DNA of 64,000 bases from an uncultured Candidatus Saccharibacteria bacterium (GCA_964567095.1 CAZMKN010000001.1:11675-75674); one strand, 5' to 3'; positions 19,416 through 40,742 are shown, counted from the stretch's first letter. The notes: generated by a model from the letters alone, not told the origin. A program made the numbers and translations.

Positions 19416-19477
19416 ACAACGAAATCCTCACATTCGTTCGTATTTATGTTGAGTCGCCAAAATTCTTACAGAATCTT

Positions 19478-19898
19478 GACGCAGGAAGTCTATAAGCCGG
19501 ATTCTGTCGAGGGAAAGCATCTATCTACGCTCGACGAAATGTTCGCTTGCGCTTGCATTATCGCCGAGTCGTTTGAATCCAAATGATTCCAACGCTCCAT
19601 CTTCACATCGTGCTACAAAGTAGACTTGTCAGGTTAACTCAAACGATGCGGTCGTGGATTTCAGCGGGTGGGATTGCCCGTTTCACTCTTTCTCCGTGTC
19701 CGAAGATTTAGGAAAAAGCTCGTCTCTGCTGCTCTCAGAAGGTGTTGATTCACCCTCTGTCTCTTCGCTATTTCTAGTAAAGAGCACCAGCGGTTATGTA
19801 TTATCCGTCGGAGATTGCCCTCCGTCCCCTTACCTTGCGCAGTCCGGACTTTCCTCTCCGTGTTTTGAGGCACGGAGCGCTTTCCTGACTTCCTGCAA
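19478..19898 (-). ncRNA. rnpB: RNase P RNA (bacterial type)
   Basis: Minus strand reads 5'-GCAGGAAGUC... (P1) ...GAGGAAAGUCCGGACU (P4 5' strand)...AGGGUGAA...ACAGAAUCCGGCUUAUAGACUUCCUGC-3'. The P4 3' strand and P1 complement are both present. The locus is GC-richer than its surroundings and has no coding ORF. Confidence 0.8.
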
Positions 19899-24961: not shown

Positions 24962-24993
24962 GGAGAAATTATAACAGGGCGAAAAGCAGCAAT

Positions 24994-25062
24994 GGTCGAG
25001 CACGTCGGTCATGAAATTTCAGAAAATGTTGTACGATACTCGGCTTCTCTAGGATACATGGT
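24994..25062. repeat. intergenic repeat copy A (GGTCGAG-N6-GGTCATGAAATTT...)
   Basis: GGTCGAGCACGTCGGTCATGAAATTTCAGAAAATGTTGTACGATAC... is ~70% identical over ~70 nt to the copy at 26011. Confidence 0.6.
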
Positions 25063-25065
25063 TGA

Positions 25066-25983
25066 TTATAGCGAACCATGTTTACATCTTTTTAGTGCCT
25101 TTAATATATCAAGTATAGAGTCAGAAATATTGCCCTCCTGAAGATTTTCAAAAAATGTGGTTATAAATAGCATGCCTCTATTTTTTTCCAACTCCAAACC
25201 CTTTTCTATTTCATAATTATCAAAGACACGCTCACTTATAAACCCAATATGTACAGCCCTAATTAAATGTTCCTCGAAGCAAATTCGCCAATTATTGTAT
25301 GCTTTCGGATATTTCGGATGTTGTTTTGCCTCTTCAAGTAAATTTTCGATTTCATCAATATCTTTTCTATAAGGTTTTAATACTTCCTTTGCAATTGGAT
25401 GAGAACCTTCATGAATAATAGCGTGAAGTAGTGCTCGTTTGTTAATTTCCCCCATAACACCTACTACTTGGTAATTAATGTTTCCAATCTGTGGTCCAAA
25501 GCTTCCGTGGGTAAATGGGTTTGGAATTACGACCATTTCATTTTTTACTTTCTTTCCCCATACTCTTTCTAACATTTCCTCAACATTTGCTTGTGAAATA
25601 ATTTGTTCCATTTCTTTTTTTATAGCTTCAAGGGAAATTTCTAGTTCCTTATAATAAGTTTTAAAATCAGTTTTATTGTAGAAATCAACTAAATAGGGTT
25701 TAATAATTTTACCTTTATCAATATGCCAGTGAAGTTCCGAGGATATCTCAACATTTCTCGGTTCAAATTCTGGAGGTTTACCAACGGTTAGTGACCAAAC
25801 CACCACCTTGTGCTCATGAATATATTCACCTACTTTTGGTGCATTTCCCATATAATCTTTGAAATGATTTTTTACCTGTTCTTGTAATGGGTGGGTGTTT
25901 GAATCTCCACCTGCCTGGTCAAATCTATTTAGAAATGAGTAGAGAAGTGTGAGATTTTCATTGGTTTCAACTCGTATACTCAT
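25066..25983 (-). CDS. putative zinc metallopeptidase-like protein (HExxH)
   Basis: AIIHEGSHPI contains HExxH. Otherwise no recognisable domain. Confidence 0.4.
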   Translation of the reverse strand: MSIRVETNENLTLLYSFLNRFDQAGGDSNTHPLQEQVKNHFKDYMGNAPKVGEYIHEHKVVVWSLTVGKPPEFEPRNVEISSELHWHIDKGKIIKPYLVDFYNKTDFKTYYKELEISLEAIKKEMEQIISQANVEEMLERVWGKKVKNEMVVIPNPFTHGSFGPQIGNINYQVVGVMGEINKRALLHAIIHEGSHPIAKEVLKPYRKDIDEIENLLEEAKQHPKYPKAYNNWRICFEEHLIRAVHIGFISERVFDNYEIEKGLELEKNRGMLFITTFFENLQEGNISDSILDILKALKRCKHGSL

Positions 25984-26010
25984 ATGGTAATAATAACAAA
26001 GTAGACTTGG

Positions 26011-26097
26011 TTGAGTACGTTGGTATTGAAATTTCTGGAAATGTTATTCCATACATGGTTTCTCCAGGCTATATGGTCGAGAAGGAGCGATGAATCT
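26011..26097. repeat. intergenic repeat copy B plus partial B'
   Basis: GGTTGAGTACGTTGGTATTGAAATTTCTGGAAATGTT...CATACATGGTTTCTCCAGGCTATATGGTCGAGAAGGAGCGATGAAT, with a second GGTCGAG start at 26077. Confidence 0.6.
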
Positions 26098-26371
26098 TGA
26101 ACAGCTTTTACCACTTGCAGAATCTATATTTGAGAATTGGAATACAGAAAAGTTTGATGAGAGTTTGTTAGTTCCAGTAGGTATGGGTATGAAATATGCG
26201 GCTTCCTACAAGTATTAGCTTTGAAAACAAAAACAACTCCATAGGGAGTTGTTCATAATGGAAGCGAGTCTCTTGATGATTCTTCATCATTGTAGGCGCC
26301 CAATCGTGCCTCGTTATTCGATGCTAAAAGCACCTATATTCGCTTGATAAGTAAATTGTATCATATGAAAA

Positions 26372-26387
26372 TGGTCGGGGTGACAGG
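26372..26387. repeat. att-like direct repeat matching the 3' end of tRNA-Pro (15/16 nt)
   Basis: TGGTCGGGGTGACAGG here versus TGGTCGGGGTGACTGG at 36254-36269, which is the acceptor/T-arm 3' end of the minus-strand tRNA. Confidence 0.5.
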
Positions 26388-26549
26388 CAATACCGTCGCT
26401 ACGCTCCTGTTGCATCCACAACTACTAAGTTCACTAAGTATTGTGTAGACTCTTTCTCGCATGTCACACAAACAAGAAAAATGCCCACATCCATCTTTGA
26501 CGGATCTGTACACTTTTCTGGTCGACCATAGTAACTAGTGTTCGCAGCT

Positions 26550-26750
26550 TTATTTAGTAAATATTCCTATACAGGCGTGTTGCTCTAACTTTCCTGGATT
26601 TGTGGGATTTTTGTAGACCTTTGTAACGATTCTTATCCCCATGCAATTTTCTATCACGCCTCCGGCATCATGTCTGTTGAATAGGAACAATCCAAGTGCC
26701 GTAATTACTACTAATATGCTGAATGCAATGAAAATCGACTTTGTGTTCAT
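26550..26750 (-). CDS. small hydrophobic protein (66 aa)
   Basis: Single predicted TM helix. The call is weak. Confidence 0.25.
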   Translation of the reverse strand: MNTKSIFIAFSILVVITALGLFLFNRHDAGGVIENCMGIRIVTKVYKNPTNPGKLEQHACIGIFTK

Positions 26751-26802
26751 AACTATATATTATCAAAAAAACATGGTTTGCCATAGCTGACCACATTTGT
26801 AA

Positions 26803-26985
26803 CTATTTCTTGGGAGTAAAGAAGTAACTTATTGCACAAAATCCAAACCCGAACAGTTCTATTATTAGTATAAATAACAAACTAGTATGACCTGAAACAA
26901 CAAAATAACCGGAAATCAGGGTTAAAAAACCAAAGAAGCTCATGAGATTTCTTGATAATAATTTACTCACGTTGTAATTGTACAA
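26803..26985 (-). CDS. small hydrophobic protein (60 aa)
   Basis: Two predicted TM helices. The call is weak. Confidence 0.25.
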   Translation of the reverse strand: MYNYNVSKLLSRNLMSFFGFLTLISGYFVVSGHTSLLFILIIELFGFGFCAISYFFTPKK

Positions 26986-26994
26986 AATTTTCCT

Positions 26995-27040
26995 GGTCGA
27001 GAAGTACGGTCATGAAATATTATTCTCTTCAGGATGTAAA
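26995..27040. repeat. intergenic repeat copy C
   Basis: GGTCGAGAAGTACGGTCATGAAATATTATTCTC. It lies immediately upstream (in minus-strand sense) of the small 60-aa ORF at 26803-26985. Confidence 0.55.
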
Positions 27041-27117
27041 TAAGACAAACGAGACACTACAGGAAACTTTTTCTAGGTATATCTTGCTATATTTTTTCAG
27101 CGAAAGCTTGGCTTATT

Positions 27118-27558
27118 CTAAACTTCAAGAATGGTCTTTAAGTTTTCAAGCATCTGACGTGTTGTGTTTTGGGCAATTTTATTAATTATTAGTTTGTTCG
27201 TTATTCTTTGTAATGCGGTTTCCGAAAGTTCATAGTCGATTTGAACTTTTACTTCTGTACTGCCATTATCTGTCGAAGTTAACTCGTAGGTCCATGTTGA
27301 GTCAGCGTCTCCTTTTGAGGAAATCACGACTTTAGTTGGAGCTGTATATTCTATAACCTCAGCTTTTCCTCTAAGGTCGCTTCCAGCCATGTTAAATCGC
27401 CAATCAAATTTTTGACCAACACCGTCTTGTTCAGGGAAGATATTGGTATTCTCGTTTAAATTAGGTACGAAAGCTGGGCCATTATACGGGGATGCCATAT
27501 AGGTAAAAACTTCGTTTAACGGTTTATTAATAGTAGTTTTTGATGAAACTGTAGTCAT
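27118..27558 (-). CDS. SRPBCC (Bet v1-like / polyketide cyclase-like) small-ligand-binding protein
   Basis: At 146 aa, its secondary-structure pattern and size fit the SRPBCC/Polyketide_cyc2 fold. Confidence 0.4.
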   Translation of the reverse strand: MTTVSSKTTINKPLNEVFTYMASPYNGPAFVPNLNENTNIFPEQDGVGQKFDWRFNMAGSDLRGKAEVIEYTAPTKVVISSKGDADSTWTYELTSTDNGSTEVKVQIDYELSETALQRITNKLIINKIAQNTTRQMLENLKTILEV

Positions 27559-27608
27559 TTTTGTGTTCCTTAAAATAATTACGCTTACTATTTGAGTTTA
27601 TCACAAAA

Positions 27609-28064
27609 TTAAAGTAGATAATTTTGGATGAACTTTCTGAATACTTCCTTGGTGATGAGCACTCTTTTCGAATATTTCTTTGTACTAAATATAACTAGGT
27701 TTAATTTTCTACATAATTTATATGATTTTATTTTTGTACTGCTATCGATTAAGTGGACATCAGCTAAATGTTCCACGGGGGATCTTGTTATATTGGAAGC
27801 CTTTTCAAGAGCTTCGAATATATGTATTGTTGTTATTCCATACACTAACCACATTTCAGTAGTAAAGAAAAGCATTGCTATTAGGATTGCTATGGCTAAA
27901 GACCAGACGCCAAAAGATGGAAAGCTGATTAAACTTAAGGATACACCAAGTGCAGTCAAACCTCGTTGTCTAACTAGTATTGGCCTGTTTTTGTGTAAGG
28001 GTAATACAAAATAATAAGCTGCTAATGTAATCACGCCTACACATGCAAAATAGAAAACTACCAT
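27609..28064 (-). CDS. small membrane protein (151 aa, ~4 TM)
   Basis: Hydrophobic ORF that is co-oriented with, and tightly spaced to, the lipid operon. Confidence 0.4.
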   Translation of the reverse strand: MVVFYFACVGVITLAAYYFVLPLHKNRPILVRQRGLTALGVSLSLISFPSFGVWSLAIAILIAMLFFTTEMWLVYGITTIHIFEALEKASNITRSPVEHLADVHLIDSSTKIKSYKLCRKLNLVIFSTKKYSKRVLITKEVFRKFIQNYLL

Positions 28065-28088
28065 AATATTATTCTATGTTACTTTGTT

Positions 28089-28982
28089 TCATACGCAAAA
28101 TATAGTGATCGTCGTGTAAGTTAGTATTATGTAGAGAAGTGTGGTGGATCTATAAAGTTTTGCGAAGAGAGTATCTTTTGAGATTGCGTATATAAGTCCC
28201 ACAAAACCCATTACCACAGTAAAAATAACGATTAAATTTATATTAAGTGCAACTGGTACCTTATCTAGAAACAGTATGTTAAGTGCAGCCATTAACATTA
28301 CTAATAGAACCGCGCCCAATTTCCCAAATACTTTAGAATATGAGTTTAAGTTTTTCTTTTCTTCACTTTGGGCATAAGTTTTTCTACCAAACTCAAAAAT
28401 ATTGAATATAAACCATCCTCCGAACGAAAAATATAGTAAATCAAGCGAAAAGTCCGCGGGATCGTTAGCAAACAGAGCGATAAATAGAGTTTGTGATATA
28501 AGTATCACTATAAAAGTGTGAGTTATAGCATATGTAGTAAGGTGTGCTCTCAGCCATTCTTTTAAGAAGAACTCTTTATACATTAGTAAAGAATAGCCAA
28601 TAGTAATTAAACAGAGTAATAAAGGTTGTTTACCGTAGAACGAGAATATAAGAATTTCTACTATAATGAGGAAAAGTATGACCTGTTTAATCTCCCTTTT
28701 ATGAAGAAACCCTCGGGGCACGGGTCTTTCAGGATGAAAATTTTTGTCAAACTCAATATCTTTAATTTCATCATATAAACGTAAGATGAAGAAAAAAAGC
28801 GCAACTGCTAAAAATAATGGTATTAAGTGAAGAAAATCAGAGTACGATTCATGGAGGTCAGTAGCTATAAGATGGGTATACAAAGTGTAATGACTACCAA
28901 TAAAAACTACGATCATTGGGAAATGGTATAGGGGATTAAAACGTTCCATAATGAATTGTATCCATCTACTTAAGCTTTTCAT
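28089..28982 (-). CDS. UbiA-family aromatic/isoprenoid prenyltransferase
   Basis: Polytopic protein with LYDEIKDIEFDKNFHPERPVPRG, an Asp-rich motif plus the RP(L/V)P(S/R)G signature of UbiA enzymes. Confidence 0.6.
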   Translation of the reverse strand: MKSLSRWIQFIMERFNPLYHFPMIVVFIGSHYTLYTHLIATDLHESYSDFLHLIPLFLAVALFFFILRLYDEIKDIEFDKNFHPERPVPRGFLHKREIKQVILFLIIVEILIFSFYGKQPLLLCLITIGYSLLMYKEFFLKEWLRAHLTTYAITHTFIVILISQTLFIALFANDPADFSLDLLYFSFGGWFIFNIFEFGRKTYAQSEEKKNLNSYSKVFGKLGAVLLVMLMAALNILFLDKVPVALNINLIVIFTVVMGFVGLIYAISKDTLFAKLYRSTTLLYIILTYTTITIFCV

Positions 28983-30621
28983 TTAGCTCCTGTCGCAAAT
29001 CATTGTAGTTAACTTTGCTGTGATGTCTAACATCCATGGGTATCTTTTCTAAGTACACTACTTTATCAAGTGGAATTTTGGCGTCTCTGAAAGTTTTAAA
29101 AATCGTGTCTTTGCACTTATTTTTATCCTTGTTGTTCTCATTAAGTGTCACAACAGCCGTAATAGTTTGTTTGTTTTTACAATTTAGGTCTATATAAGCA
29201 GCATTAGAAACAAAGGATAGGTTTTTTAGTAAAATTTCTGGTTGAACAGGAAACAGATAATCATTTTTATATTTAATTACATTGTGTTTTCTTCCCACTA
29301 TCCATAAGGAATCGTTGTCGTCTATTCTGGCTAAATCTCCTGTGCGATGCCAAATAGCCCCATTTTTATCTATAATTTTCGAACGAGTAAATGCTTCGGC
29401 GTTTTTATAGTATTCTTTGCAGACATTTTCACCTGTAACCACAAGTTCACCCACTTCTCCTTTTTTCACTTTTAGTGTAGATAAATCTGTAGGTTCATTA
29501 AAACATTTTGTGCCTATGTTTATAAATTCATATTTTAAGTGCTCATCGATTTTGCCAACATTCACACCTTTTTTTGTTACGTTTTTTATTTTGGAAGACT
29601 CAGTACTAAGCATTTCTTTTGCTTCGATATAAGAAATTGGTTCTACTTCAGTGGATCCGTATAGTATCCAATTTTTTGAGTTTGGTGTTATTTCTGTAAA
29701 ATTTGAAATATCTGTTTCACTTATAGGTGCGCCCCCAGTTAATACTCTGGAGATATTTTGTAAAGATTTATTATTTTTGTTGCAATATTTAGTTAAACTT
29801 TTGAGAGATGATGGTGCAAGTGTCATACAAGTGACTTTACATTCTTCAATTTGAGATAGGAGTATTTCAGGATCTTTTGGAGTGGGACGACTGACATCTA
29901 TTGCTGGGATAACCGTTGATATACCAGATGCTAGGTTGTTTAAAGTGAAAACTGGAAATACAGGTAAATCAATATCACTGTTTTTGTAAGGAAATAATCT
30001 TTTCAGAGCACAATGCTGTGCGCAAAGAAATCTGTGTGTTCTGTTCACTCCCTTTGGCGTTCCTGAACTACCTGTCGTGTATGTTAAAAGGCCTGTTTGT
30101 TCTTGGTTAACGGGCTGTATTTTATGAGGAGCATTGTCTAGCAATCCTTTAGTGTTTTGTGAATCCAAAGCCCAAAAGTTGTTGTTTGATATTTGAATCT
30201 TAGTTTTAAGATTATTGAAATACTCTTTAAATACGGGTAGCCACGTATCTAACGATATGATGCCAACAGGATTGGCATTTTTCATTATGGAAATCAACCG
30301 GTCCTTACGAGTTATGGAATCTATGAGAACTGGAACTGCTCCAAGAACCTGTAATCCCACTAGAGCTATATACAATTCAACCGAAATTGGCGCCACAACA
30401 ATCATATTTTCGTTCTGTTTTATTCCAAGGTTGTGTAAGCTTTTAGCAAATCTAATTGTTTTATCGTATAGCTGGGCATATGTAATTTGTTCATAACTGG
30501 TAGGAGATTTATTAGATTTGAAATAGAATGCAACCTTATCACCATTATCTTGTGCATGTTTTTTTAGAAAATAAGCCACATTGTTTTTAATACTTAATGT
30601 TGGATGGTGACCTGTTTTCAT
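28966..30621 (-). CDS. acyl-AMP ligase (ANL/AMP-binding superfamily; fatty acyl-AMP ligase-like)
   Basis: AMP-binding motif LTYTTGSSGTPKGV. The start at ATG 30621 overlaps the upstream stop (ATGA). The N-terminus resembles FAAL. Confidence 0.7.
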   Translation of the reverse strand: MKTGHHPTLSIKNNVAYFLKKHAQDNGDKVAFYFKSNKSPTSYEQITYAQLYDKTIRFAKSLHNLGIKQNENMIVVAPISVELYIALVGLQVLGAVPVLIDSITRKDRLISIMKNANPVGIISLDTWLPVFKEYFNNLKTKIQISNNNFWALDSQNTKGLLDNAPHKIQPVNQEQTGLLTYTTGSSGTPKGVNRTHRFLCAQHCALKRLFPYKNSDIDLPVFPVFTLNNLASGISTVIPAIDVSRPTPKDPEILLSQIEECKVTCMTLAPSSLKSLTKYCNKNNKSLQNISRVLTGGAPISETDISNFTEITPNSKNWILYGSTEVEPISYIEAKEMLSTESSKIKNVTKKGVNVGKIDEHLKYEFINIGTKCFNEPTDLSTLKVKKGEVGELVVTGENVCKEYYKNAEAFTRSKIIDKNGAIWHRTGDLARIDDNDSLWIVGRKHNVIKYKNDYLFPVQPEILLKNLSFVSNAAYIDLNCKNKQTITAVVTLNENNKDKNKCKDTIFKTFRDAKIPLDKVVYLEKIPMDVRHHSKVNYNDLRQELNEKLK

Positions 30622-31358
30622 AAAATCATACCTTTTTTTTGAAATATTTTTATCTGTTCTAAACTTGGTGTTGAAGTTATTTTTGGAGTGATGCAATTGT
30701 TTGGAGTTCCTGTTGGTAATTTTCCTGTTTGATCTATTTTATTGATAAAGCTAACTACAGCCTCTTTTTCTTTTTGAGCACAAGTTTTTAGATATTTGAT
30801 ATAGTTTCTTTCGGGTTTAATTTTTTCCGTATAGTAAATACTACCCCTGTCAATTTTTTTAACCATTTTATGAATAGAAAAACCGGTATCTTTATTTTCT
30901 GCCAGGGCATTGAGATCACAAAATAATCCTTTTTGTTTTGGTAATAATCCGTGATGTACATTTACACAACCTAATCTTGGAATGTTTAAAATTTTGTTTT
31001 TAAATATACATCTAGTACGCATGTTGATAACTATGTCCGGTTTTAAAGAGTTAACCCAAGATACTGCGGTACGACTATTAACATCAGAAATGTTTACAAA
31101 TGGTATTGCGTATTTCTCAAGCATTCTTTCTTTAGTTTTAGAGATTGAACTTATAATATTTCTAAAAAGGGTTTTTGCTATATTTTTGCATCCAGCAAGA
31201 TAAAGATATGGTATTTTAGTAAATATTCTGCCTTTATTAATATCCACTAAAACCACTCCTGCCAAGTGATTTTTTGATCTGGAGAGTATAAAATCTAGTA
31301 CATCCCTATAATTGTTTGGCGCATAAGTGATGCTGGATGTTACTAAAACTATTCTCAT
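30618..31358 (-). CDS. formyltransferase-domain protein (Fmt/ArnA N-domain-like)
   Basis: MRIVLVTSS... Rossmann start and CVNVHHGLLPKQKGL, which corresponds to the formyl-transferase N(I/V)H.SLLP..RG motif. Confidence 0.6.
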   Translation of the reverse strand: MRIVLVTSSITYAPNNYRDVLDFILSRSKNHLAGVVLVDINKGRIFTKIPYLYLAGCKNIAKTLFRNIISSISKTKERMLEKYAIPFVNISDVNSRTAVSWVNSLKPDIVINMRTRCIFKNKILNIPRLGCVNVHHGLLPKQKGLFCDLNALAENKDTGFSIHKMVKKIDRGSIYYTEKIKPERNYIKYLKTCAQKEKEAVVSFINKIDQTGKLPTGTPNNCITPKITSTPSLEQIKIFQKKGMIL

Positions 31359-31360
31359 GT

Positions 31361-32446
31361 TTATAATTTTCTATATATACCAAAGGAATACATTTGGATT
31401 TTTTCTTGTCTAATCAAATTTTTATAATCATTAGTAATATCAACGTAACCATTTTCATTTAATTTCTCTGGTATTCTCATATAATAGCGGTTGACTATAA
31501 TCCCGCCTGGAGAAATACTGTCGCGAATTTCTTGAAGAAAGTTTTGTTCTTGAGGTGGTTTTAGATAGGATGGAATATCAGACATCGACAAAAAAGTGGT
31601 TGGTTCGGGCGTGTTTTTGGTTACTTCTATAATATTTTGATGTTTATAGTTAATATTTGTTTTTTCTAAAGCATTTTTAGCACTCAAAAAAATATCTATA
31701 TCTGCCTCCAGTGGAGCTCCCTCAAGAAATTTAATTTCTCCAAAAAAAAGTAACTGCAAAAAATAATTATGGCTAACTAACCCTTGCTTAAACAAGTTGT
31801 CGAATCTTTCCAAATAGAATTTTTGATAGGTCCCACCAATATTCTTTTTGGGGAAATCACCTCTATATAATAATGTATTAAAGACAGCGGCATTTCCTAG
31901 TAAGTAAACTGCTAAGGACCAATTTCTCTTGGGAAATTTAGAAGAAAAATATATTTTCTGTTCTTCTAACGTTTTACACGAAAATACATCCAGTCCTTTT
32001 TTTCCAACTAAACCCCTTACAATCTTACTTAATTTCTTAAAAGTTTTTTCCCATTTTCCTACGTATAGGATAGGATTCCAATTATTTGTGTTAAATATAT
32101 TAGAGGTAATATTTTTAGCATCAGGTGATAAGGCAAGATTTTCGAATATATCGCGTCTTTCTTTATTGCACATGGTGCCTTTTGTGTACCCCCAAAATGC
32201 TAGAAACTTTTGGTGAGTTAAATATTTGACTGTGGCTAAACGTAACTCTACTAGAGCCAGCTGTTCTATTGAAAGATCAACGCAGGTAAGTTGTTGTGGG
32301 GATTTTGCGAGTAAAGGGATTATTCTTGAACCGCTACCGGCGGCAGCAATTACATGCCGTGTTTTTTTCGGAAGTAACTCCCACTCAAGCGTAGTATCTT
32401 CATTTCCCAGAGTGTAATTTAGTGCGTTGAAAAATCCATCTTTCAT
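31361..32446 (-). CDS. DUF3419 / BtaA-like SAM-dependent (3-amino-3-carboxypropyl)transferase-like protein
   Basis: HVIAAAGSGSRIIPLL...LTCVDLSIEQLALVELRLA...FLAFWGY parallels the BtaA signature (itSaGcN...VDlNpaQ.aLLELK...F..FfG). The assignment is from memory of that family. Confidence 0.45.
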   Translation of the reverse strand: MKDGFFNALNYTLGNEDTTLEWELLPKKTRHVIAAAGSGSRIIPLLAKSPQQLTCVDLSIEQLALVELRLATVKYLTHQKFLAFWGYTKGTMCNKERRDIFENLALSPDAKNITSNIFNTNNWNPILYVGKWEKTFKKLSKIVRGLVGKKGLDVFSCKTLEEQKIYFSSKFPKRNWSLAVYLLGNAAVFNTLLYRGDFPKKNIGGTYQKFYLERFDNLFKQGLVSHNYFLQLLFFGEIKFLEGAPLEADIDIFLSAKNALEKTNINYKHQNIIEVTKNTPEPTTFLSMSDIPSYLKPPQEQNFLQEIRDSISPGGIIVNRYYMRIPEKLNENGYVDITNDYKNLIRQEKIQMYSFGIYRKL

Positions 32447-32469
32447 AAATAGATAATATCATTCGTGTT

Positions 32470-33639
32470 TTAAACTTTAATATGTTCTAGGATATTTTCT
32501 TTTGCATATGTGTTTATAGAATGCAGGAATTTACGCGTTATCTTTGGGGGATTTCCTAAGTATTTTTGGGCATTAATTCTGTCAAAAAAATATCTTTTAC
32601 TGACATAGGGTATATACCAACTGACATGTTTTGTATATTTACGAATAGGAAATACCAAAACATATAATAAATGAATGAGTGACTTGAATACCCAGGACGT
32701 AACTGGTATTAGCTTAGTTTTATTAATCCCCATATCATACAAAATGTTCTTTAATACAAAATTAAATTCTGGAGGTTCCGGATGCGTAAGATTAAGTGTA
32801 ATACCTTTTAGATTATTTTTGCAAGATACAACCATAGAATTAATAACATAATCAATTGGTATCATATTAACTCTACCTGTTTTAGGATATGGAATAACTA
32901 ACCATGGGAGATCCAGAACATTCTCAGATTTATGGTAATTGGTTCCTAATAAATCTAATATTTTCGCTGGTAATTTATCCTTTTGCAAAGAACCAATAAC
33001 GCTCTTTTTTAGAAAGTGGAACATAAAAGTAAAACGATAATACCCAAAAGTGCAACCCTCGGCTTTTCCAATATAAGCATCCCCGATAATAATAGAAGGT
33101 CTGAAAATCACATACGGTAAATCACAGTTTTCGCGAACATATTGTTCCCCCCTTAATTTTGATTTTTCATATTGGTTTCTATGTTTCTGTCCCACATCCA
33201 ATTCCTCTTCTGTAAATGAGTAGTGATTTCCACAAACATATGCAGTACTCATATGCATAAACTTAACACCTGTTTTATTTGCAAAATCAACCACATTTAC
33301 AGTTCCCTCGTAGTTTGTTTTATTCACTGTAGATTTATCTGATTTAGAAAATGATAAGTTTGCAGCAAGGTGCCAGAATACTGTGTCATTGTGTTTCAGT
33401 TCATTACAAATTTCTTTTGAAATGCCCAGGTTTTGATCTAATATATCTCCCTTCAGAACTTTAAAGTTATTAGGATACTTTGTTAACTGTTTACTAAATA
33501 TTTTTTTTGCTCTCATTTCAACGGTGCTACCATCTAGATTTCTTATTATTATCCAAACTGTTTCTCCTTCGTTTAGGAGAGCACTAACCAGGTTTCTTCC
33601 AACAAAGCCTGTGGCACCTGTTACAAAGTGTATTTTCAT
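32470..33639 (-). CDS. NAD(P)-dependent thioester/fatty-acyl reductase (NAD_binding_4, 'male sterility' family)
   Basis: MKIHFVTGATGFVGRNLVSALL Rossmann motif, a catalytic YxxxK region and a C-terminal extension as found in fatty-acyl reductases. Confidence 0.6.
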   Translation of the reverse strand: MKIHFVTGATGFVGRNLVSALLNEGETVWIIIRNLDGSTVEMRAKKIFSKQLTKYPNNFKVLKGDILDQNLGISKEICNELKHNDTVFWHLAANLSFSKSDKSTVNKTNYEGTVNVVDFANKTGVKFMHMSTAYVCGNHYSFTEEELDVGQKHRNQYEKSKLRGEQYVRENCDLPYVIFRPSIIIGDAYIGKAEGCTFGYYRFTFMFHFLKKSVIGSLQKDKLPAKILDLLGTNYHKSENVLDLPWLVIPYPKTGRVNMIPIDYVINSMVVSCKNNLKGITLNLTHPEPPEFNFVLKNILYDMGINKTKLIPVTSWVFKSLIHLLYVLVFPIRKYTKHVSWYIPYVSKRYFFDRINAQKYLGNPPKITRKFLHSINTYAKENILEHIKV

Positions 33640-34283
33640 AAAATAAAGTATAGAACAATGCCGGAGGAAATTGGAATGAAAACATTATCCCACCCTTTGC
33701 TAAAAAGACTTTCCACTAAGGTTACTGCAAGAGTGCCCATAAGAACTGCTTGAATTTTGTTTAATGAGAAATTACTCTCGTGGATTAGTAAACTACTGAA
33801 AATAAAAAGGGTCACCAGAAAAAAGGTTAAACTACCTTCTACAGTCTTTAAACCGGTAAGATTATATTTGTGTTTTCCATACCTATTACCTATTATTCCT
33901 GCCATTCCGTCCGAGAAGCCAAGGATAAGGATCGCACCCTGAAATATTACTGGGTTATATGACCAAAATAATAGAGCCACAAAAATAATAGTAATTGGAA
34001 ATAAAAAAGCCCCATGACTACCAGTGTCGTTTTCGTGTACACTTTTCAAAACTTTATAACGTTTTGAAAATAAAAGAAGTAAAAAGAAAAAGATGCCAAG
34101 TACTACAACACCTTGCAGGTTAATAAACAGTGGCATAAGTGCAGCAACGATACTCCCACCAATGTGTACGACTTTTCGAGTTATGTAGGGAGCAACATTC
34201 CTCTTATAAAGAACCTCTCCAATTCCAAAAACAATAAGATATAAAATTACTATTAATAAAAAGTTAATATTGAGTATATTCAT
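33636..34283 (-). CDS. CTP-dependent polyprenol/phytol/dolichol kinase-like membrane protein (CdsA/CTP_transf_1 superfamily)
   Basis: RKVVHIGGS and GNRYGKHKYNLTGLKTVEGSLTFF, the latter matching the G..K...KT.EG signature shared by phytol/dolichol kinases and CdsA. Confidence 0.45.
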   Translation of the reverse strand: MNILNINFLLIVILYLIVFGIGEVLYKRNVAPYITRKVVHIGGSIVAALMPLFINLQGVVVLGIFFFLLLLFSKRYKVLKSVHENDTGSHGAFLFPITIIFVALLFWSYNPVIFQGAILILGFSDGMAGIIGNRYGKHKYNLTGLKTVEGSLTFFLVTLFIFSSLLIHESNFSLNKIQAVLMGTLAVTLVESLFSKGWDNVFIPISSGIVLYFIL

Positions 34284-34284
34284 A

Positions 34285-35877
34285 TCAGATTTTTACCTTT
34301 CCTTCATGCAAATCTAGAGTTATTTCTACACCACTCTTAATAAAACTAGTTATTTTTTCAACTCCTACAATACAGGGTATATTTAATTCACGTGCGACAA
34401 TAGCTGCATGTGATAGCATTCCCCCTCTCTCTACAACTATGCCTCTTAGCAAAGGAAATACTATAGTCCACCCGGGATCTGTTTGTCGGGTGACCAGGAT
34501 TTTACCCTCAAAATCAGCTGTTGGGTCGAAATCCATAAGGGATAAAGAAACTCCTGTTACCACCTTTGTATTTACAGGTCGCGAGGCAACTCTTCCAATA
34601 AATGTGCGTTTTTCGGGAGCTTTCGTTACCAATTTTGCTTTAAGCAGTTCTTTTTCAAGCTGCATCACAGTCTTTATAGTCTCAAACCTATGAGCAAGAT
34701 CAATTTTGCCCCATTTATTAAATTCCTTTTTTCTACGTGTTACGCATCTTAAAGTATCTATTTTTTTATTACCGTTAATGATGTCGAAAATCTCATCAAT
34801 CCTTAAGAAATAGATATCACGTTTATTATTGATGATTTGTTCTTTTTCAAATCTGATACCTATATTTATAAAAATTTCTCTTATCAACCCAAAGATCAGT
34901 GTTCTTTTAAATCGAGATTCTTCTCTTCTTTTAATTGAGTTATCAGCCCATTTTAACAACCATTTTAGAAAAATCCTTCTAAAAAGGTTCAAACTTTTTA
35001 GCTTATTGTGATTTACTGAGTTTTTACTGATTTTCTTATTTATTGATTTAACTTGTAATAGTGACTGAAGCAATAATATTAGATTTTCGGGTTTTTCATT
35101 TAGTGTCTCAGACTCTAATTTTAGCTCGTTTGGTATTCTGGTACCAAAATTTTCAATATAACTTCTGATATCAACACTGACCTGTTGTTCTGAATAAATG
35201 TTTTCTAGAGAATTAACTATCTTGTGTGGTTCGTTTTCGGAAAACAACTTTTTTAATTTCGGATTTTCCTTTATTAACGAAATGATATTTGCTAATTTTT
35301 TACCCGGATCGAGAGTTACCAATGGGGTATTTGTATCTGATCTCATATACATATAAGCATCTGATGAATTTAGCCAGGATTTGAACAGTTTATCTGCTGC
35401 CCCCGTGCTTACCATTACAGCAAAATCATTTGCAATTGGAGCCCGCCAACGTGATAGGAGTTTTTTTGCTGCTTCATTGTATATACTCATCAATTCTTTT
35501 GTGTTTAGTTTAGTCAAATCTATAGAATTTAATTTTGAGTAAACTTTATTAAAATAAGAGTTAAACCTGGGTACAGTAAATTTTAGTGAACCGAAAGTAA
35601 TTGAAATACGAAAAAATTGATACACAGTCTTGGGCAGGTAAATAAGATTCTTTCTGAAAAAAGTGAGTGGAGTATTCTCATCATTGTTGTCGAAAGTTTT
35701 CCTAATTGTTACACCCATCATTTTTTCCATAAATTCACTACTTAATTTATGAGCAGGAAAAAAAGAAAGCATTTTGTACCAACTACTCAGGTTGTAGTAG
35801 ATTCTGTATCCGATAAATTCCACCATACATTCAAACATGGGTTTATTGTCTTTGATGACCCTTTCACTAGCCCCCAT
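34285..35877 (-). CDS. PEP-utilising-enzyme mobile (swivel His) domain protein, PEP synthase/rifampin-phosphotransferase-like
   Basis: The C-terminal GGMLSHAAIVARELNIPCIVGVE is the phospho-His swivel-domain signature. The ~420 aa N-terminal region is unassigned. Confidence 0.55.
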   Translation of the reverse strand: MGASERVIKDNKPMFECMVEFIGYRIYYNLSSWYKMLSFFPAHKLSSEFMEKMMGVTIRKTFDNNDENTPLTFFRKNLIYLPKTVYQFFRISITFGSLKFTVPRFNSYFNKVYSKLNSIDLTKLNTKELMSIYNEAAKKLLSRWRAPIANDFAVMVSTGAADKLFKSWLNSSDAYMYMRSDTNTPLVTLDPGKKLANIISLIKENPKLKKLFSENEPHKIVNSLENIYSEQQVSVDIRSYIENFGTRIPNELKLESETLNEKPENLILLLQSLLQVKSINKKISKNSVNHNKLKSLNLFRRIFLKWLLKWADNSIKRREESRFKRTLIFGLIREIFINIGIRFEKEQIINNKRDIYFLRIDEIFDIINGNKKIDTLRCVTRRKKEFNKWGKIDLAHRFETIKTVMQLEKELLKAKLVTKAPEKRTFIGRVASRPVNTKVVTGVSLSLMDFDPTADFEGKILVTRQTDPGWTIVFPLLRGIVVERGGMLSHAAIVARELNIPCIVGVEKITSFIKSGVEITLDLHEGKVKI

Positions 35878-36136
35878 TAAACGAGAGAAATGTTGGTATA
35901 CCTCTTGATAAACGTATCGTACAAAAGAAAATGTAAGGGGCGTAGTAACACCCGAGTAACTTTCGGCAATATTAGAATTATCGTAAATTATTTTATTATT
36001 TTTATCGCTTATTAAAACATTATAACTTAGTATCCTAGTGGCATTTACTGTTTTTTAGAACTTTCCATATTTTTCAAGATTCCTCCAGATAATCCGTTAT
36101 TGATAGCATATACGTGTTTTAACATCGCTAGAATAT

Positions 36137-36170
36137 CAAGCAAAACCAAGCAAAACCAAGCAAAACAGAG
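36137..36170. repeat. short tandem repeat (CAAAACCAAG x3, last copy degenerate)
   Basis: caag-caaaaccaag-caaaaccaag-caaaacagag. Confidence 0.5.
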
Positions 36171-36253
36171 GCTCGGGAGTTGGATTATTGGAATGGGTTT
36201 TATCAAACCACTAAAAGGTGTTTTAGGCATCATGGTCGTTCTGATGCCCATTC

Positions 36254-36332
36254 TGGTCGGGGTGACTGGACTTGAACCAGCGAAACCTCCCGGCCCCCAG
36301 CCGGGCGCTCTAGCCAACTGAGCTACACCCCG
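36254..36332 (-). tRNA. tRNA-Pro (anticodon GGG), CCA encoded
   Basis: Minus strand reads CGGGGUG-UA-GCUC-AGUUGGCUA-GAGC-G-CCCGG-CUGGGGG-CCGGG-AGGUUUC-GCUGG-UUCAAGU-CCAGU-CACCCCG-A-CCA. It has a 7-bp acceptor with C1:G72 and A73 (both typical of Pro), G37, and a T-loop UUCAAGU. Confidence 0.8.
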
Positions 36333-36400: not shown

Positions 36401-37297
36401 ATGCCCACACTTATTTCCGTAACTTGTATAAACTGTAAAAAGCACTATTCCATTACACTAAAAAGGTATAACGAATCTCTTAAGAAAGGTTGGAATTTCT
36501 ATTGTAGTCCTGAGTGTAGGAAAGAATTTCGTAAGACGGGTAAGCTACTCACCTGTGACAATCCTGATTGTTCCAGTAAATTTTATAGAGCTAAATGTTT
36601 CATTAATGAGACTGGTAATTTCTGTTCCCAAAGTTGTGCTGCCTCCATTAACAACAATCTTAGGAAAAAAGAGCTGTCAAAGATCTGTGCCAACCCTTCC
36701 TGTGATAATAAAATTCCCCCTAGAAATACCTATTGCTCCAATAAATGCAGGGGGGAAGTTTTGAGGAAATCCGAAAGCTATTATAAGGAAAAAACCCTGA
36801 AAGGAATTAACGATTTTGTGCGATCTCACGGAAGAATTCCCCTGAAGGTTGAGTTACCCTCCACTTATACCTTTTCTAGGAAGGGTTTTGGTACCTGGAA
36901 TAAAGCTATAAAAGCCGCAGGACATATGCCTAACCCCATTCTCTTTGCTCGCAAACACATTGCTTTGGATGGCCATGTTTGTGATTCATTCTCCGAAATG
37001 ATTATAGATAATTGGTTATACAGTTATTCTATTCCCCATAAAATAAACGTACATTATCCCAAGAATTCCAAACTCACCACCGATTTTGTAGTAGGTGACT
37101 ATTGGATAGAATTTTTTGGTTTGGCAGGAGATTTAATCGCTTATGACAAAAATGTGCAGAGAAAACTTCGAATAGCTAAGGACCAAAATTTGGAATTGAT
37201 TAAACTTTATCCAAAGGACTTATATCCTAAAAATATATTGGAGAAAACACTACAACCTGTTTTATATCACTATGCTAAAGCCTTCGTGTTTGTATAG
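36401..37297 (+). CDS. zinc-ribbon-repeat protein with an uncharacterised C-terminal domain
   Basis: Five or more consecutive CxxC...CxxC modules (CINCKK...CSPEC, CDNPDC...C, CSQSC, CANPSCDNK...CSNKC), then a ~170 aa domain (ALDGHVCDSFSEMIID...DFVVGDYWIEFFG). The listed 36365 start is TTG; ATG at 36401 is more likely. Confidence 0.45.
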   Translation: MPTLISVTCINCKKHYSITLKRYNESLKKGWNFYCSPECRKEFRKTGKLLTCDNPDCSSKFYRAKCFINETGNFCSQSCAASINNNLRKKELSKICANPSCDNKIPPRNTYCSNKCRGEVLRKSESYYKEKTLKGINDFVRSHGRIPLKVELPSTYTFSRKGFGTWNKAIKAAGHMPNPILFARKHIALDGHVCDSFSEMIIDNWLYSYSIPHKINVHYPKNSKLTTDFVVGDYWIEFFGLAGDLIAYDKNVQRKLRIAKDQNLELIKLYPKDLYPKNILEKTLQPVLYHYAKAFVFV

Positions 37298-37302
37298 CGT
37301 AT

Positions 37303-38667
37303 CTACCCGTTTCCTTCTATTTCGTTCGCTGGTTTTTCTGCTTGTGCTTGACTTTCTTCCGGAGTAGCGAAGTTGTTCACGGGAGGTTTTTCCTCAGATA
37401 TTGGCGCAGCACTCACTTTTTCCCTTTCCCCTTCCTCTGCAATTTCAGGCTTTTCAGGTTCCTTAGTTTCATTACTCCCCATAGTCATGGCGTCGGGAAT
37501 GTAGATCACAGGTTCCTCCGCAATCACCATATTTTCCTGAATATTTTCATCAGGAGTTTCTGTACCCTCATTTGAAGTTGGTTGAGGCTGTTTTGGCTCA
37601 TTAATTTCCATTGAGTTAGCAATTACCGTTGGAATTTCCGCCTTCCCTACGTCTTCGAGCTTTATCTCTGTTGGTTGGACATCCGAATAAGTTTCCGGTT
37701 CCATATCTTTTGGCTCACTAACGTGTTCTTCCTTTCCCCCCGAAATTTCAGGAGTTTCTTCTGTAGGGATTTCCTCAGAAACATTTTCATCACCTTCATT
37801 ATTTTCTGGTTCCTCAGGAGTTTTCTCACTTCCCATTTCCTGTTTCTTGCTTTTTAGATCATCGAAAACCTTCAGAATAACCAGTGGTGTAAATGCCATG
37901 AATAAGTAAACTATTAAACCTTGCGTTGAATACATCAAAAACATCAAGGGAATGAGGCCAACAAATATAAGTAATGTGTACCCAATACCTTTCTTATACA
38001 GATTCCATCTATGGCCCTTTGTTAATTCCTTGCTCTTTTTCAACGCTTCAATAACTCCTACATCTTCAGTTAATAGAATGTAAGGCGCAAACAGGAACAT
38101 TAAGGTAAAAATAACTCCCGGTATTATAAGCAGAATGTATCCAAATCCTATCAACAGGCCCATTGGAATTGAAAGAAACAGGAATTTTGGCGTCTTTCTG
38201 ATCGCTTCAAGCAGAAGTTCTTTTACCGGAACCAGGTTCTTTTGGTGCATTTTTATGGGTACTAGCGCCGCATAAGTTATACTGATGGCTGTTACCACAA
38301 AACCGATAGTTACCGCTAGAATTCCATAAATCGTAATAGCCGTTTTGGATTGGTTACTTACTTCATCTATACCAATAACTTTCTGAGCTCCAGATATTGG
38401 AATAAGGTTTTCGGGGGAGCTTTCTGGAACAATATATTCTCCCAAACTCACGCTTGGTAGTACGCTAAATGTGGGTACGTCGGGTTTTTTACCAGAAATT
38501 CCGAAAATGATAACTCCCGGAATCATTATTGCAAGCGTAACTCCCGCCCCCACCAAGGCTAATGCCATGTAAGACTTGAAAAGGAATCCTAAAGAAGCAT
38601 TATCAAACAAATTTTTAAAAGCACTTTTAATAGCGTCTTTGAGTGACATCAGTTTAGGTTTATCCAT
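37303..38667 (-). CDS. polytopic membrane protein with a long acidic E/P/T-rich C-terminal tail
   Basis: About 6 TM helices in the first ~290 aa, then a ~160 aa tail rich in E, P, T and N (EEPENNEGDENVSEEIPTEETPE...). Confidence 0.5.
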   Translation of the reverse strand: MDKPKLMSLKDAIKSAFKNLFDNASLGFLFKSYMALALVGAGVTLAIMIPGVIIFGISGKKPDVPTFSVLPSVSLGEYIVPESSPENLIPISGAQKVIGIDEVSNQSKTAITIYGILAVTIGFVVTAISITYAALVPIKMHQKNLVPVKELLLEAIRKTPKFLFLSIPMGLLIGFGYILLIIPGVIFTLMFLFAPYILLTEDVGVIEALKKSKELTKGHRWNLYKKGIGYTLLIFVGLIPLMFLMYSTQGLIVYLFMAFTPLVILKVFDDLKSKKQEMGSEKTPEEPENNEGDENVSEEIPTEETPEISGGKEEHVSEPKDMEPETYSDVQPTEIKLEDVGKAEIPTVIANSMEINEPKQPQPTSNEGTETPDENIQENMVIAEEPVIYIPDAMTMGSNETKEPEKPEIAEEGEREKVSAAPISEEKPPVNNFATPEESQAQAEKPANEIEGNG

Positions 38668-40100: not shown

Positions 40101-40742
40101 TTAAATTTTAAATTTTAGGTAAAATATTGGACGGGGTTTTCCAAGACTTAGCTTTTTGCTCCAGCTAGTGTCAATTTCCCTAAGCATTTTTCTCGTTACC
40201 TTTTGGAAGTTGTCTATCTTGAATCCGATATCCTCATATTTTGGAATGAGTTCTATTTTTATATAGTTCTCGTCAAGATCCTTTAAGTTTAATCTTTTCG
40301 TTTCAACTGGTTCTGAGAGTAAATCGTATCCAAACACTAGTAACAAGCTTCCTCCTGGCTTGATCAAATTCTTGATTGCTTTGATGACCGGTTTATTATA
40401 TCCGGCAATATTTTCCAGCAAACTTCCCCAAGGTAAAATAATAGTGATTACATTGGCAGTATTTCTCAGTTCTTCTGGCAACATTTCAGCACTTCCCAAG
40501 ACGAAGAGAACGTTTGAAAGCTTCTTTCTCAATGCTTTTTTTGAATATTTTCTAAGTTGCTTTTCTACCAGATCGATACCGATGCAAAGTATTTCAGGAT
40601 TTTTAAGCGCTTTTTTGTAAACATATCGCCCATTGCCTGTTCCCAGATCTATTTCTACATTTTCAAATTTTCGCAAAATTTCCTTGAAATCTTCCGAAGA
40701 CATCTCTTTAAGTTTGTTTCCTAGGACTATTTTCATTTTCAC
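40101..40742 (-). CDS. class I SAM-dependent methyltransferase (TrmB-like)
   Basis: EIDLGTGNGRYV...ILCIGIDL glycine-rich SAM-binding motif. Size 213 aa. Confidence 0.45.
   Translation of the reverse strand: MKMKIVLGNKLKEMSSEDFKEILRKFENVEIDLGTGNGRYVYKKALKNPEILCIGIDLVEKQLRKYSKKALRKKLSNVLFVLGSAEMLPEELRNTANVITIILPWGSLLENIAGYNKPVIKAIKNLIKPGGSLLLVFGYDLLSEPVETKRLNLKDLDENYIKIELIPKYEDIGFKIDNFQKVTRKMLREIDTSWSKKLSLGKPRPIFYLKFKI

Follow-up and report, generated by a model that had tools for sequence, protein, structure and literature searches.

A composite genomic island was found at the 3′ end of the tRNA-Pro gene of a candidate division WWE3 (Katanobacteria) bacterium, within the 64,000-nt stretch of DNA analyzed here (the window). 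The island comprises at least five segments in one orientation, each joined at a direct copy of the last bases of the tRNA, (C/T)CGACCA, and we consider it probable (about 0.65) that it was built by conservative site-specific recombination catalyzed by an enzyme acting in trans. As a sequence-only reading had noticed, an integrase, recombinase, or transposase is missing: Pfam and other domain searches detected no such domain in the ORFs of the island or elsewhere in the 64-kb window. The locus is an ordinary kind of genomic island, unusual in that its recombinase-less cassettes each end in a copy of the tRNA end. Its features and immediate flanks are as follows.

36401-37297, plus strand: Zn-ribbon/HNH_repeat protein, divergent from the tRNA (native proximal flank)
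36254-36332, minus strand: tRNA-Pro(GGG), allele T_A, 79 nt with an encoded CCA and a 7-nt variable loop (ARAGORN, Rfam, and alignment with three other WWE3 tRNA-Pro genes)
26994-36253, minus strand: lipid-operon element, 9260 bp, with a 250-nt leader "a" (GAATGGGCAT...), nine genes, and M1 closing it (Pfam, NCBIfam)
26994-27062, minus strand: M1, a diverged copy of the 72-nt element M, ending in CTCGACCA at 26994-27001 (motif search and alignment of ten M copies)
26522-26993, minus strand: segment with a 60-aa ORF (26803-26985) and a 66-aa ORF (26550-26750), beginning with GGAAAAT and ending in GTCGACCA (26522-26529)
26372-26459, minus strand: R module, ending in CCTGTCACCCCGACCA (26372-26387) and homologous to the sequence that follows M in the WWE3 genome L058
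26180-26371, minus strand: segment "c", with a terminator-like hairpin at 26231-26254
26074-26179, minus strand: O module, ending in CTCGACCA; it also closes the CysRS cassette of variant strains
26090-26218, plus strand: 42-aa ORF in the O region
24993-26073, minus strand: DUF4932 element, with its gene at 25066-25983 (GC3 of 0.25) followed by M2
about 24993-25065, minus strand: M2, a variant copy of M, ending in CTCGACCA
23447-24976, minus strand: native distal flank, a promoter and a 504/521-aa membrane protein gene (likely start 24961, GC3 of 0.385), syntenic with the sister species

The tRNA-Pro 3′ end recurs distal to foreign DNA

The single tRNA of the window, at 36254-36332 on the minus strand, was called as tRNA-Pro(GGG) by ARAGORN and by Rfam (RF00005, 58 bits), confirming the gene that the sequence-only reading had placed there. 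Its last 16 nt, TGGTCGGGGTGACTGG (36254-36269), comprise the 3′ strand of the T-stem, the 3′ strand of the acceptor, A73, and CCA. A second copy, TGGTCGGGGTGACAGG, lies at 26372-26387 with 15 of 16 positions identical, in direct orientation on the same strand as the tRNA and on its 3′ side. These are the only two matches to the 16-mer at up to two mismatches, compared with 0.02 expected by chance from shuffles, so that the recurrence pointed out earlier, and its improbability as an accident, both held up. Furthermore, the 26372-26387 copy matches the tRNA-Pro 3′ end of the sister species L056 at 16 of 16 positions, and in the 301 kb of compared loci GTCACCCCGACCA (at most one mismatch) was restricted to tRNA-Pro genes and to positions downstream of M elements. 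The repeat is probably a genuine attachment-site scar, marking one junction within the composite island.

The region also differs from its surroundings in composition, being richer in AT, as had been proposed from the sequence alone. GC content is 33.3% in 26372-36253 versus 40.7% and 40.4% in the flanks, GC3 is 0.21 to 0.31 versus 0.35 to 0.40, and the tetranucleotide profile correlates with the rest of the window at 0.43 to 0.62 versus 0.75 to 0.86. The GC3 and tetranucleotide anomaly spans 25066-35877 and ends at the 521-aa gene, and neighboring membrane-protein genes do not share the shift. All island genes lie on the minus strand. The foreign DNA begins at 36253, the base next to the CCA of tRNA-Pro; at the other end, DNA that is both atypical in composition and absent from the sister reaches 24993, about 1.4 kb past the 26372 repeat. 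The island delimited in this way occupies 24993-36253 (11.3 kb), between tRNA-Pro and the 504/521-aa membrane-protein gene.

An empty site was found in L056, a sister WWE3 species with about 76% nucleotide identity (70% amino acid identity for the NpmA-like protein) and with conserved synteny on both sides of the locus (GT4/TatD/NpmA on one, 521aa/614aa/YceG/MiaA/MiaB on the other). Only 276 nt with a 68-aa ORF separate its tRNA-Pro from the homolog of the 521-aa gene, and homology to the window resumes at 24977 (L056 8152-9664 aligned to window 24977-23465, 78%). The ORF right after the L056 tRNA-Pro is the homolog of the 66-aa gene at 26550-26750. The two comparisons that the sequence-only reading had named, composition and related genomes, thus leave an island standing at this tRNA.

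With L057 and L058 as outgroups in the WWE3 locus comparison, the content of the locus differed in every WWE3 genome examined. The lipid operon and the DUF4932 gene are missing from L056, L057, and L058. In L058, tRNA-Pro is followed by a cation-efflux gene, M, 34 nt, and then CCAGTCACCCCAACCA, which matches 15 of the 16 positions of that genome's own tRNA end; no recombinase is encoded in this island. In L057, a CACCCCGACCA scar lies 54 nt beyond the tRNA-Pro gene.

A chain of segments with tRNA-end junctions

Reading away from the tRNA, the lipid element with M1 is followed by the 60/66-aa mini-segment, R, "c" with O, and the DUF4932 element with M2. The proximal junction is formed by the last 8 nt of tRNA-Pro, CCCGACCA (36254-36261), 8-nt core repeats lie at 26994, 26074, and 24993, and at least five direct copies of the tRNA terminus, the 16-mer among them, bound separate segments. 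At most junctions the shared core is 6 to 8 nt only. Seven intergenic CGACCA motifs on the minus strand fall within 24993-26999 and 36233-36259, versus about 6.6 expected per strand across the whole 64 kb.

This structure only partly agrees with the single island of about 10 kb (26372-36332) envisaged from the sequence alone. Foreign DNA at the tRNA-Pro 3′ end, the tRNA-end repeat, and an integrase lost or located elsewhere are retained, but the DNA is not one element: the lipid element already ends at 26994, 24993-26371 is foreign yet lies outside those bounds, and 26522-26993 holds the 66-aa gene. Since this gene is tRNA-adjacent in the sister and internal to the array here, it points to a mini-cassette or to an additional rearrangement.

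A search of the ORF-poor gap at 25984-27117 revealed no remnants of CysRS. Searches of Pfam, PHROGs, NCBIfam, and PDB with the 42-aa ORF, the 60/66-aa ORFs, and the HNH_repeat protein yielded no match to a recombinase or an Xis-like protein. The HNH_repeat protein, decayed in L057, was ruled out as a candidate recombinase because L056 and L058 do not have it, although L058 has a cassette.

Strain variants use the same junctions in different combinations

Independent assemblies of co-occurring variant strains (L020, L021, and L025-L029) carry a 3-kb block that starts exactly at the tRNA 3′ end and contains a 241-aa protein, CysRS, an 84-aa protein, tRNA-Cys, and O. What comes after the CGACCA of O varies: the DUF4932 element in the window, the lipid leader in L025, L027, and L029, and the sequence upstream of the 521-aa gene in L020. 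The lipid leader itself is preceded by the tRNA in the window and by O in L025. A given left module can thus precede different right modules, with the switch exactly after CGACCA, and the variants show that the junctions are used combinatorially. Another strain variant, L009, lacks 26460-26993, and altogether the junctions at 26994, 26522, 26074, and 24993 are all used in variants. Several of the junctions seen in variants coincide with the ends of short metagenome contigs, the further linkage lying beyond those contigs.

A 72-nt element closes several cargo segments

M is nearly identical across WWE3, Woesebacteria, and Saccharibacteria genomes, and in every copy the sequences diverge right after CGACCA. 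The layout of tRNA-Pro, cargo, M with CTCGACCA, a spacer, and a copy of the tRNA-Pro 3′ end is found in the window together with L009 and in L058, and partially in L036, where M is followed 262 nt on by CCACCCCGACCA. We propose that M-terminated elements at tRNA-Pro form a family in CPR. For the M copies in L031, L032, L037, and L048, the compared DNA contained no tRNA-Pro or repeat, and a metagenome scan for canonical M returned two loci only.

A promoter scan detected a promoter-like TTGTCT-N18-AATAAT in M1, pointing away from the lipid element, and M may act as an att arm, as an outward promoter, or as both. M and O showed no hairpin or obvious dyad symmetry and folded no better than shuffled sequences (z of +1.3 and +1.6), and Rfam searches of the window and junction regions assigned none of M, O, and R to a known RNA family. 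M was ruled out as coding sequence (MTVLLD...), its ORFs ending within 7 to 16 codons and not being conserved, and as a tRNA remnant, having no T-arm.

The main cargo is a nine-gene lipid-type operon

The operon begins with a PigC/Rph-like PEP-utilizer (34285 to about 35999), followed by a 215-aa membrane protein, an NAD_binding_4 reductase, a DUF3419 protein, a formyltransferase-like protein, an acyl-AMP/CoA ligase, a UbiA prenyltransferase, a 151-aa protein, and an SRPBCC protein. The 40 codons upstream of the PEP-utilizer contain no ATG, GTG, or TTG; they are in frame and conserved, which ruled out a frameshifted N-terminus. Judging from its domains (acyl-AMP ligase, thioester-reductase-type SDR, UbiA, BtaA-like DUF3419, PigC/Rph-like phosphotransferase, and SRPBCC carrier), the operon probably serves to synthesize or modify a lipid or an isoprenoid-linked compound.

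Gene order is kept in two Taylorbacteria contigs (L044 and L045) and in a 172-kb JGI metagenome contig (L046). In Taylorbacteria, the operon is flanked on one side by an HTH/ParB-methylase block and on the other by a large serine recombinase located about 100 nt from a tRNA-Ser. Neither M nor the operon matched viral contigs, phage records, or plasmid records, and a literature search returned nothing on the operon or on tRNA-Pro islands in CPR. The operon is one that moves horizontally and is widespread in CPR lineages otherwise without lipid synthesis.

Origin of the array

In the mechanism that we favor, the crossover would take place inside the last 6 to 13 nt of the tRNA gene by conservative site-specific recombination, with a recombinase acting in trans. 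Each incoming element would bring a core copy of its own, placed at the tip of an M, O, or R module that serves as its arm, and integration would produce the layout of tRNA, cargo, arm with core, and older DNA. Repeated events, together with events at secondary cores, would then build and reshuffle the array. The recombinase is hypothetical, since neither the window nor the L058 island encodes one. Further observations weigh against this mechanism: the core is short at most junctions, M and O have no hairpin or obvious dyad symmetry, and T_A and T_B differ across their 3′ 50 nt, for which a crossover within the final 13 nt cannot account. The internal position of the 66-aa gene, the variant junctions at contig ends, and the four M copies seen without tRNA-Pro or repeat in the compared DNA also count against it.

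A chance origin of the repeat in native DNA, with a low GC that merely reflects membrane and lipid genes, could be suggested by the shortness of the repeat and by a window without a mobility gene, but this reading is refuted by the shuffles, by a GC3 and tetranucleotide shift not shared by the adjacent membrane-protein genes, by the empty site in L056, and by the same architecture in L058. A single classical island at 26388-36253, inserted into tRNA-Pro by a tyrosine integrase that has since been lost, with the other CGACCA copies incidental, has the correct geometry and a statistically solid repeat. Moreover, in both L058 and L009 the tRNA or cargo is followed by M, then by a short spacer and the 16-nt repeat, which would make the 16-mer the canonical distal end of an element family. 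We nevertheless regard it as unlikely, because the atypical DNA absent from the sister continues to 24993, the interval includes a gene that is tRNA-adjacent in that sister, L009 lacks part of it, an O core can also precede the lipid leader, and variants use four other junctions.

Segments could instead have been swapped without any site-specific enzyme, by homologous recombination through conserved flanks such as the tRNA 5′ half and the dispersed M and O repeats. The tRNA alleles are those expected from such exchange: T_A and T_B, the latter adjoining the CysRS block in variant strains, have their 5′ 28 nt and a 99.5%-identical flank in common and then differ over the 3′ 50 nt, and identity of the lipid leader between the two alleles reaches only 92%, as for a diverged segment recombined in. 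The different content of the locus in each WWE3 genome fits as well. However, homologous recombination leaves unexplained why the unrelated tRNA, M, O, and R share the (C/T)CGACCA end, why copies of the tRNA end (15/16 and 16/16) lie distal to cargo in two genomes, and why the near-identity of M across phyla always breaks off at one and the same base; we consider it quite improbable. A composite island assembled by site-specific recombination in trans therefore remains our preferred reading.

Relation to known systems and significance

Williams is said to have surveyed tRNA-gene-targeting islands and integrative elements in 2002. With P4-type tyrosine integrase islands, the locus shares insertion at the 3′ end of a tRNA gene left intact, a distal direct repeat, atypical composition, cargo, and an empty site in a relative. 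Unlike these islands, it has no integrase of its own or elsewhere in the 64 kb, and it consists of a chain of at least five segments, some of 0.3 to 1 kb, with 6- to 8-nt cores and the 72-nt M at distal ends.

In SCCmec arrays, recombinase-less pseudo-elements are mobilized in trans, and CcrAB are large serine recombinases. The WWE3 array resembles these elements of the 3′ end of rlmH in its tandem elements at one site, direct core repeats, and recombinase-less members, and the Taylorbacteria copy of the operon lies beside a recombinase of the CcrAB class, the only such link. It differs from SCCmec in targeting a tRNA gene rather than rlmH, in having no ccr-like gene in the window, in its CPR host, and in being known here from sequence alone.

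Integrons offer a further parallel: the cassettes are co-oriented and mostly promoterless, with five minus-strand segments ending in M1, GTCGACCA, R, O, and M2, and they carry their own 70- to 110-nt 3′ modules with a short core. New cassettes also lie beside a fixed primary site (the CysRS block at the tRNA), and junctions are combinatorial. In contrast to integrons, there is no intI, the divergent neighbor of the tRNA being the Zn-ribbon/HNH_repeat protein; the core is CGACCA rather than GTTRRRY, the primary site is a tRNA 3′ end, and one "cassette" is a nine-gene operon. Integron attC sites are imperfect hairpins with RYYYAAC and GTTRRRY cores. Folding R as a single strand gave no attC-like hairpin, and the attC model was dropped for M, O, and R alike. 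IMEX are integrative elements that exploit host XerCD at dif. The absence of an own recombinase and the tandem, core-flanked organization are IMEX-like, reliance on host XerCD being the IMEX feature, but the tRNA-Pro site is not dif-like.

CPR (Patescibacteria) have tiny genomes with few characterized mobile elements, and how they acquire accessory functions is poorly understood. The locus described here is a sequence-defined example of a CPR hotspot, located at tRNA-Pro, with junctions resolved to the nucleotide and variants from natural strains, and M provides a 72-nt marker for finding similar insertions in other CPR genomes. A more speculative and rather doubtful extension is that WWE3 and other CPR possess an undescribed cassette-capture system, integron-like in function but unrelated in mechanism. 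The tRNA-Pro 3′ end would be its primary site, and its non-autonomous cassettes, from one gene to a nine-gene operon, would carry M, O, or R ends of 70 to 110 nt with (C/T)CGACCA. A chromosomal recombinase encoded elsewhere would insert, excise, and reshuffle them, and M would also serve as an outward promoter for the next cassette. Were a trans-acting recombinase found, the system would represent a new mode of gene-cassette exchange. The cargo carried by these insertions comprises the lipid-type operon, a cation-efflux gene, a Hachiman defense system, and a CysRS/tRNA-Cys pair.

Repeat of the tRNA-Pro end and an AT-rich region

The single tRNA gene of the window, a tRNA-Pro(GGG) on the minus strand (36254-36332; ARAGORN, and 58 bits with Rfam), ends in 16 nt comprising the 3' strand of the T-stem, the 3' strand of the acceptor stem, A73 and CCA, which read TGGTCGGGGTGACTGG on the plus strand. 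A copy of this 16-mer with a single mismatch lies at 26372-26387, on the strand of the tRNA and to its 3' side; the window holds only two matches at ≤2 mismatches, with 0.02 expected from shuffles. The tRNA-Pro and the direct repeat of its end, both claimed in the sequence-only reading, were thus confirmed, and the repeat is real and att-like. The tRNA-Pro of the sister species (L056) ends in CCTGTCACCCCGACCA, identical at 16/16 positions to the window repeat. Just past the window tRNA lies a hairpin, GGCATCA...TGATGCC (36226-36248), with a second CGACCA in its loop.

GC content is 33.3% for 26372-36253 versus 40.7% and 40.4% for the flanks. GC3 is 0.21-0.31 in every lipid-operon gene and in the DUF4932 gene, versus 0.35-0.40 in the genes on either side, among them those for the adjacent 521-aa and 614-aa membrane proteins, and tetranucleotide correlation to the rest of the window is 0.43-0.62 at 24-36 kb versus 0.75-0.86 elsewhere. 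All three measures support the proposed AT-rich island. Since low GC3 and low tetranucleotide correlation continue beyond 26.4 kb, where the island had been said to end, the anomaly starts at the tRNA as proposed and extends to ~25.0 kb.

Related genomes lack the insertion

The closest named relatives of the NpmA-like protein encoded at 40101-40742 (minus strand), an NpmA-family 16S rRNA (A1408) methyltransferase of the aminoglycoside-resistance type whose position is conserved among WWE3 genomes, belong to candidate division WWE3. In L056 (NpmA-like protein 70% identical, nucleotide identity ~76%), synteny is kept on one side (GT4/TatD/YggU/NpmA) and on the other (521aa/614aa/143aa/YceG/AI-2E/MiaA/MiaB), and only 276 nt, containing a 68-aa ORF, separate tRNA-Pro from the 521-aa homolog. 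The homologous window parts are 36336-36251 (tRNA), 26680-26560 (66-aa ORF) and 24977 onward. This tRNA-Pro without lipid operon or DUF4932 is the empty site that the island idea predicted. Two more distant WWE3 genomes (L057 and L058) also lack both and carry other genes at the locus. Therefore, 24993-36253 is an insertion in the window lineage, and the varying content makes the locus a hotspot. Of the two refutation tests set in the sequence-only reading, on composition and on related genomes, the island idea withstood both.

Segments of the locus in tRNA sense (minus strand), with terminal sequences
36254-36332: tRNA-Pro; CCCGACCA
26994-36253: lipid leader, operon and M1, a copy of the ~72-nt end element M; CTCGACCA at 26994
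Next segment: GGAAAAT, 60-aa ORF, 66-aa ORF; GTCGACCA at 26522
Next segment: GAAAAGT, R module (26372-26459); CCTGTCACCCCGACCA at 26372
26074-26371: segment 'c' and O module; CTCGACCA at 26074
24993-26073: DUF4932 gene (25066-25983) and M2, the second M copy; CTCGACCA at 24993
Distal flank: 521-aa gene

Across this region, intergenic CGACCA occurs seven times on the minus strand (24993, 26074, 26372, 26519, 26994, 36233 and 36254), where ~6.6 per strand are expected over the whole window. The island interval contains nine genes in one orientation, encoding a PigC/Rph-like PEP-utilizer, a 215-aa membrane protein, an NAD_binding_4 reductase, DUF3419, a formyltransferase-like protein, an acyl-AMP/CoA ligase, a UbiA prenyltransferase, a 151-aa protein and an SRPBCC protein. 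Pfam lists and other domain searches found no recombinase domain in the island or the rest of the window, in agreement with the reported absence of an integrase. In the PEP-utilizer, ~40 conserved in-frame codons (35878-35999, minus strand), with no ATG, GTG or TTG among them, precede the first ATG (35877), so that either the gene uses a non-canonical start codon or its product is truncated at the N-terminus. The leader holds a tandem GCAAAACCAA repeat of ~2.7 copies (36141-36167).

Outside the window species, the nearest PEP-utilizer homologs (~54% identical) are found in Parcubacteria. Taylorbacteria contigs carry the whole lipid operon in the same gene order with one additional gene, PPDK_N, a partner missing from the window. 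This operon is bordered on one side by a ParB-methylase, two unannotated genes (159 and 513 aa) and an HTH gene, and on the other by a large serine recombinase, ~100 nt from a tRNA-Ser 3' end. The latter arrangement was seen twice, in separately assembled contigs from two samples, one stopping inside tRNA-Ser and the other 39 nt past it. A 172-kb JGI metagenome contig (L046) has a chromosomal copy of the operon from which the reductase is absent.

Strain variants join different modules after CGACCA

Independent assemblies of the window population from many samples (99-100% identity) include three variant types that reveal the junctions. Seven loci (L020, L021, L025-L029) have a right flank 99.5% identical to that of the window and agree with it over the initial 28 nt of the tRNA, whose 3' part differs (allele T_B, 77 nt). 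The CCA of T_B directly precedes a 3-kb block made up of genes for a 241-aa protein, CysRS and an 84-aa protein, a tRNA-Cys gene, and an O module ending in CTCGACCA. The O core then runs into the lipid leader in L025, L027 and L029 (window 36253-35973, 86-92% identical), and into TTGCTGCTTTTCGCCC, the sequence behind M2 in the window, in L020. A second type (L009) has canonical M, 57 nt and the R module, without 26460-26993; in scaffold L001, canonical M precedes the 521-aa gene and the upstream gene differs. One left module therefore meets different right modules and vice versa, always exactly after CGACCA.

The two tRNA-Pro(GGG) alleles (window 36254-36332 and L020 6465-6541) are identical over the 5' 28 nt and differ in anticodon stem, variable loop and T arm. 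The window allele (79 nt) has an unusual 7-nt variable loop, and its 3' 28 nt are those of the distant L058. The CysRS block (L020 6542-9522; also L021, L025-L029) is strain-variable and missing from contigs of the dominant strain type; its 241-aa product is a membrane protein, its tRNA is tRNA-Cys(GCA), and its CysRS is the only one above 66% identity in a 5.8-billion-protein database. Past the O core and TTGCTGCTTTTCGCCC, L020 9523-9620 continues for ~80 GC-rich nt (GGCGAGCGGACGGCGAGACC...) to the contig end, resembling GC-rich motifs behind M in L058 and L036. Population contigs also break or differ at the AMP-ligase/UbiA boundary (28762-28834), and vary in the DUF975 C-terminus and the HNH_repeat gene (36871-37759), the latter being either shorter or frameshifted in L012, L014 and L021.

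The M element recurs in other CPR genomes

A degenerate 24-nt pattern from M, searched against one genome per species (GTDB representative set), matched 14 loci, ten of them coding-sequence coincidences. The other four, in CPR genomes (two WWE3, one Woesebacteria, one Saccharibacteria), match canonical M nearly identically over ~72 nt, and in all four divergence sets in directly after CGACCA. Upstream cargo varies (a Hachiman HamA and helicase pair, an MBL-fold protein, others); the Hachiman pair, directly upstream of M in Saccharibacteria (L031 979-4445), suggests that M-terminated segments also carry defence cargo. In one WWE3 genome the M core abuts the BipA stop codon. M contains an outward-facing TTGTCT-N18-TATAAT, gave no significant fold and matched no Rfam family.

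The most telling case is L058, where tRNA-Pro is followed by a cation-efflux gene, an M copy ending in CTCGACCA, 34 nt and CCAGTCACCCCAACCA; the last matches 15/16 positions of L058's own tRNA-Pro end, and its lead-in is homologous to the window R module. CCACCCCGACCA lies 262 nt past M in the Woesebacteria contig, and a CACCCCGACCA scar 54 nt past the tRNA-Pro of L057. Across the 301 kb of DNA fetched, GTCACCCCGACCA (≤1 mismatch) was restricted to tRNA-Pro genes and sites after M elements.

Origin of the island

We favor, at a probability of roughly 65%, a composite island assembled through site-specific recombination at the tRNA-Pro end and at secondary cores, with the recombinase acting in trans. 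The crossovers would fall in the final 6-13 nt of tRNA-Pro and in further copies of this core, incoming elements would bring M, O and R as their arms, and the recombinase would be supplied from elsewhere. A single decayed island, bounded by the att-like repeat and no longer encoding its integrase, seems unlikely: 26372-36332 did not hold up as one element, as its left and right modules are joined differently in strain variants. Less probable still is a flexible hotspot with purely homologous exchange, which would accommodate the variable gene content; the junctions fall exactly after CGACCA. Given the 16-nt repeat, coincidence is a very improbable account of the locus.

Islands associated with tRNA genes are an already known kind of feature. 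What appears to be new is a chain of recombinase-less cassettes in CPR with an end element conserved across phyla, of which literature searches returned no description.

Other features of the window

A candidate bacterial RNase P RNA (RF00010; ~19477-19896, minus strand), detected via L009, lies in the AI-2E transporter/YceG gap and scores 84 bits, under the gathering score of 100. An 808-aa protein (9162-11588, plus strand) amid housekeeping genes shows weak matches to TraG/VirD4-type coupling proteins (TraG-D_C, TrwB_AAD_bind).
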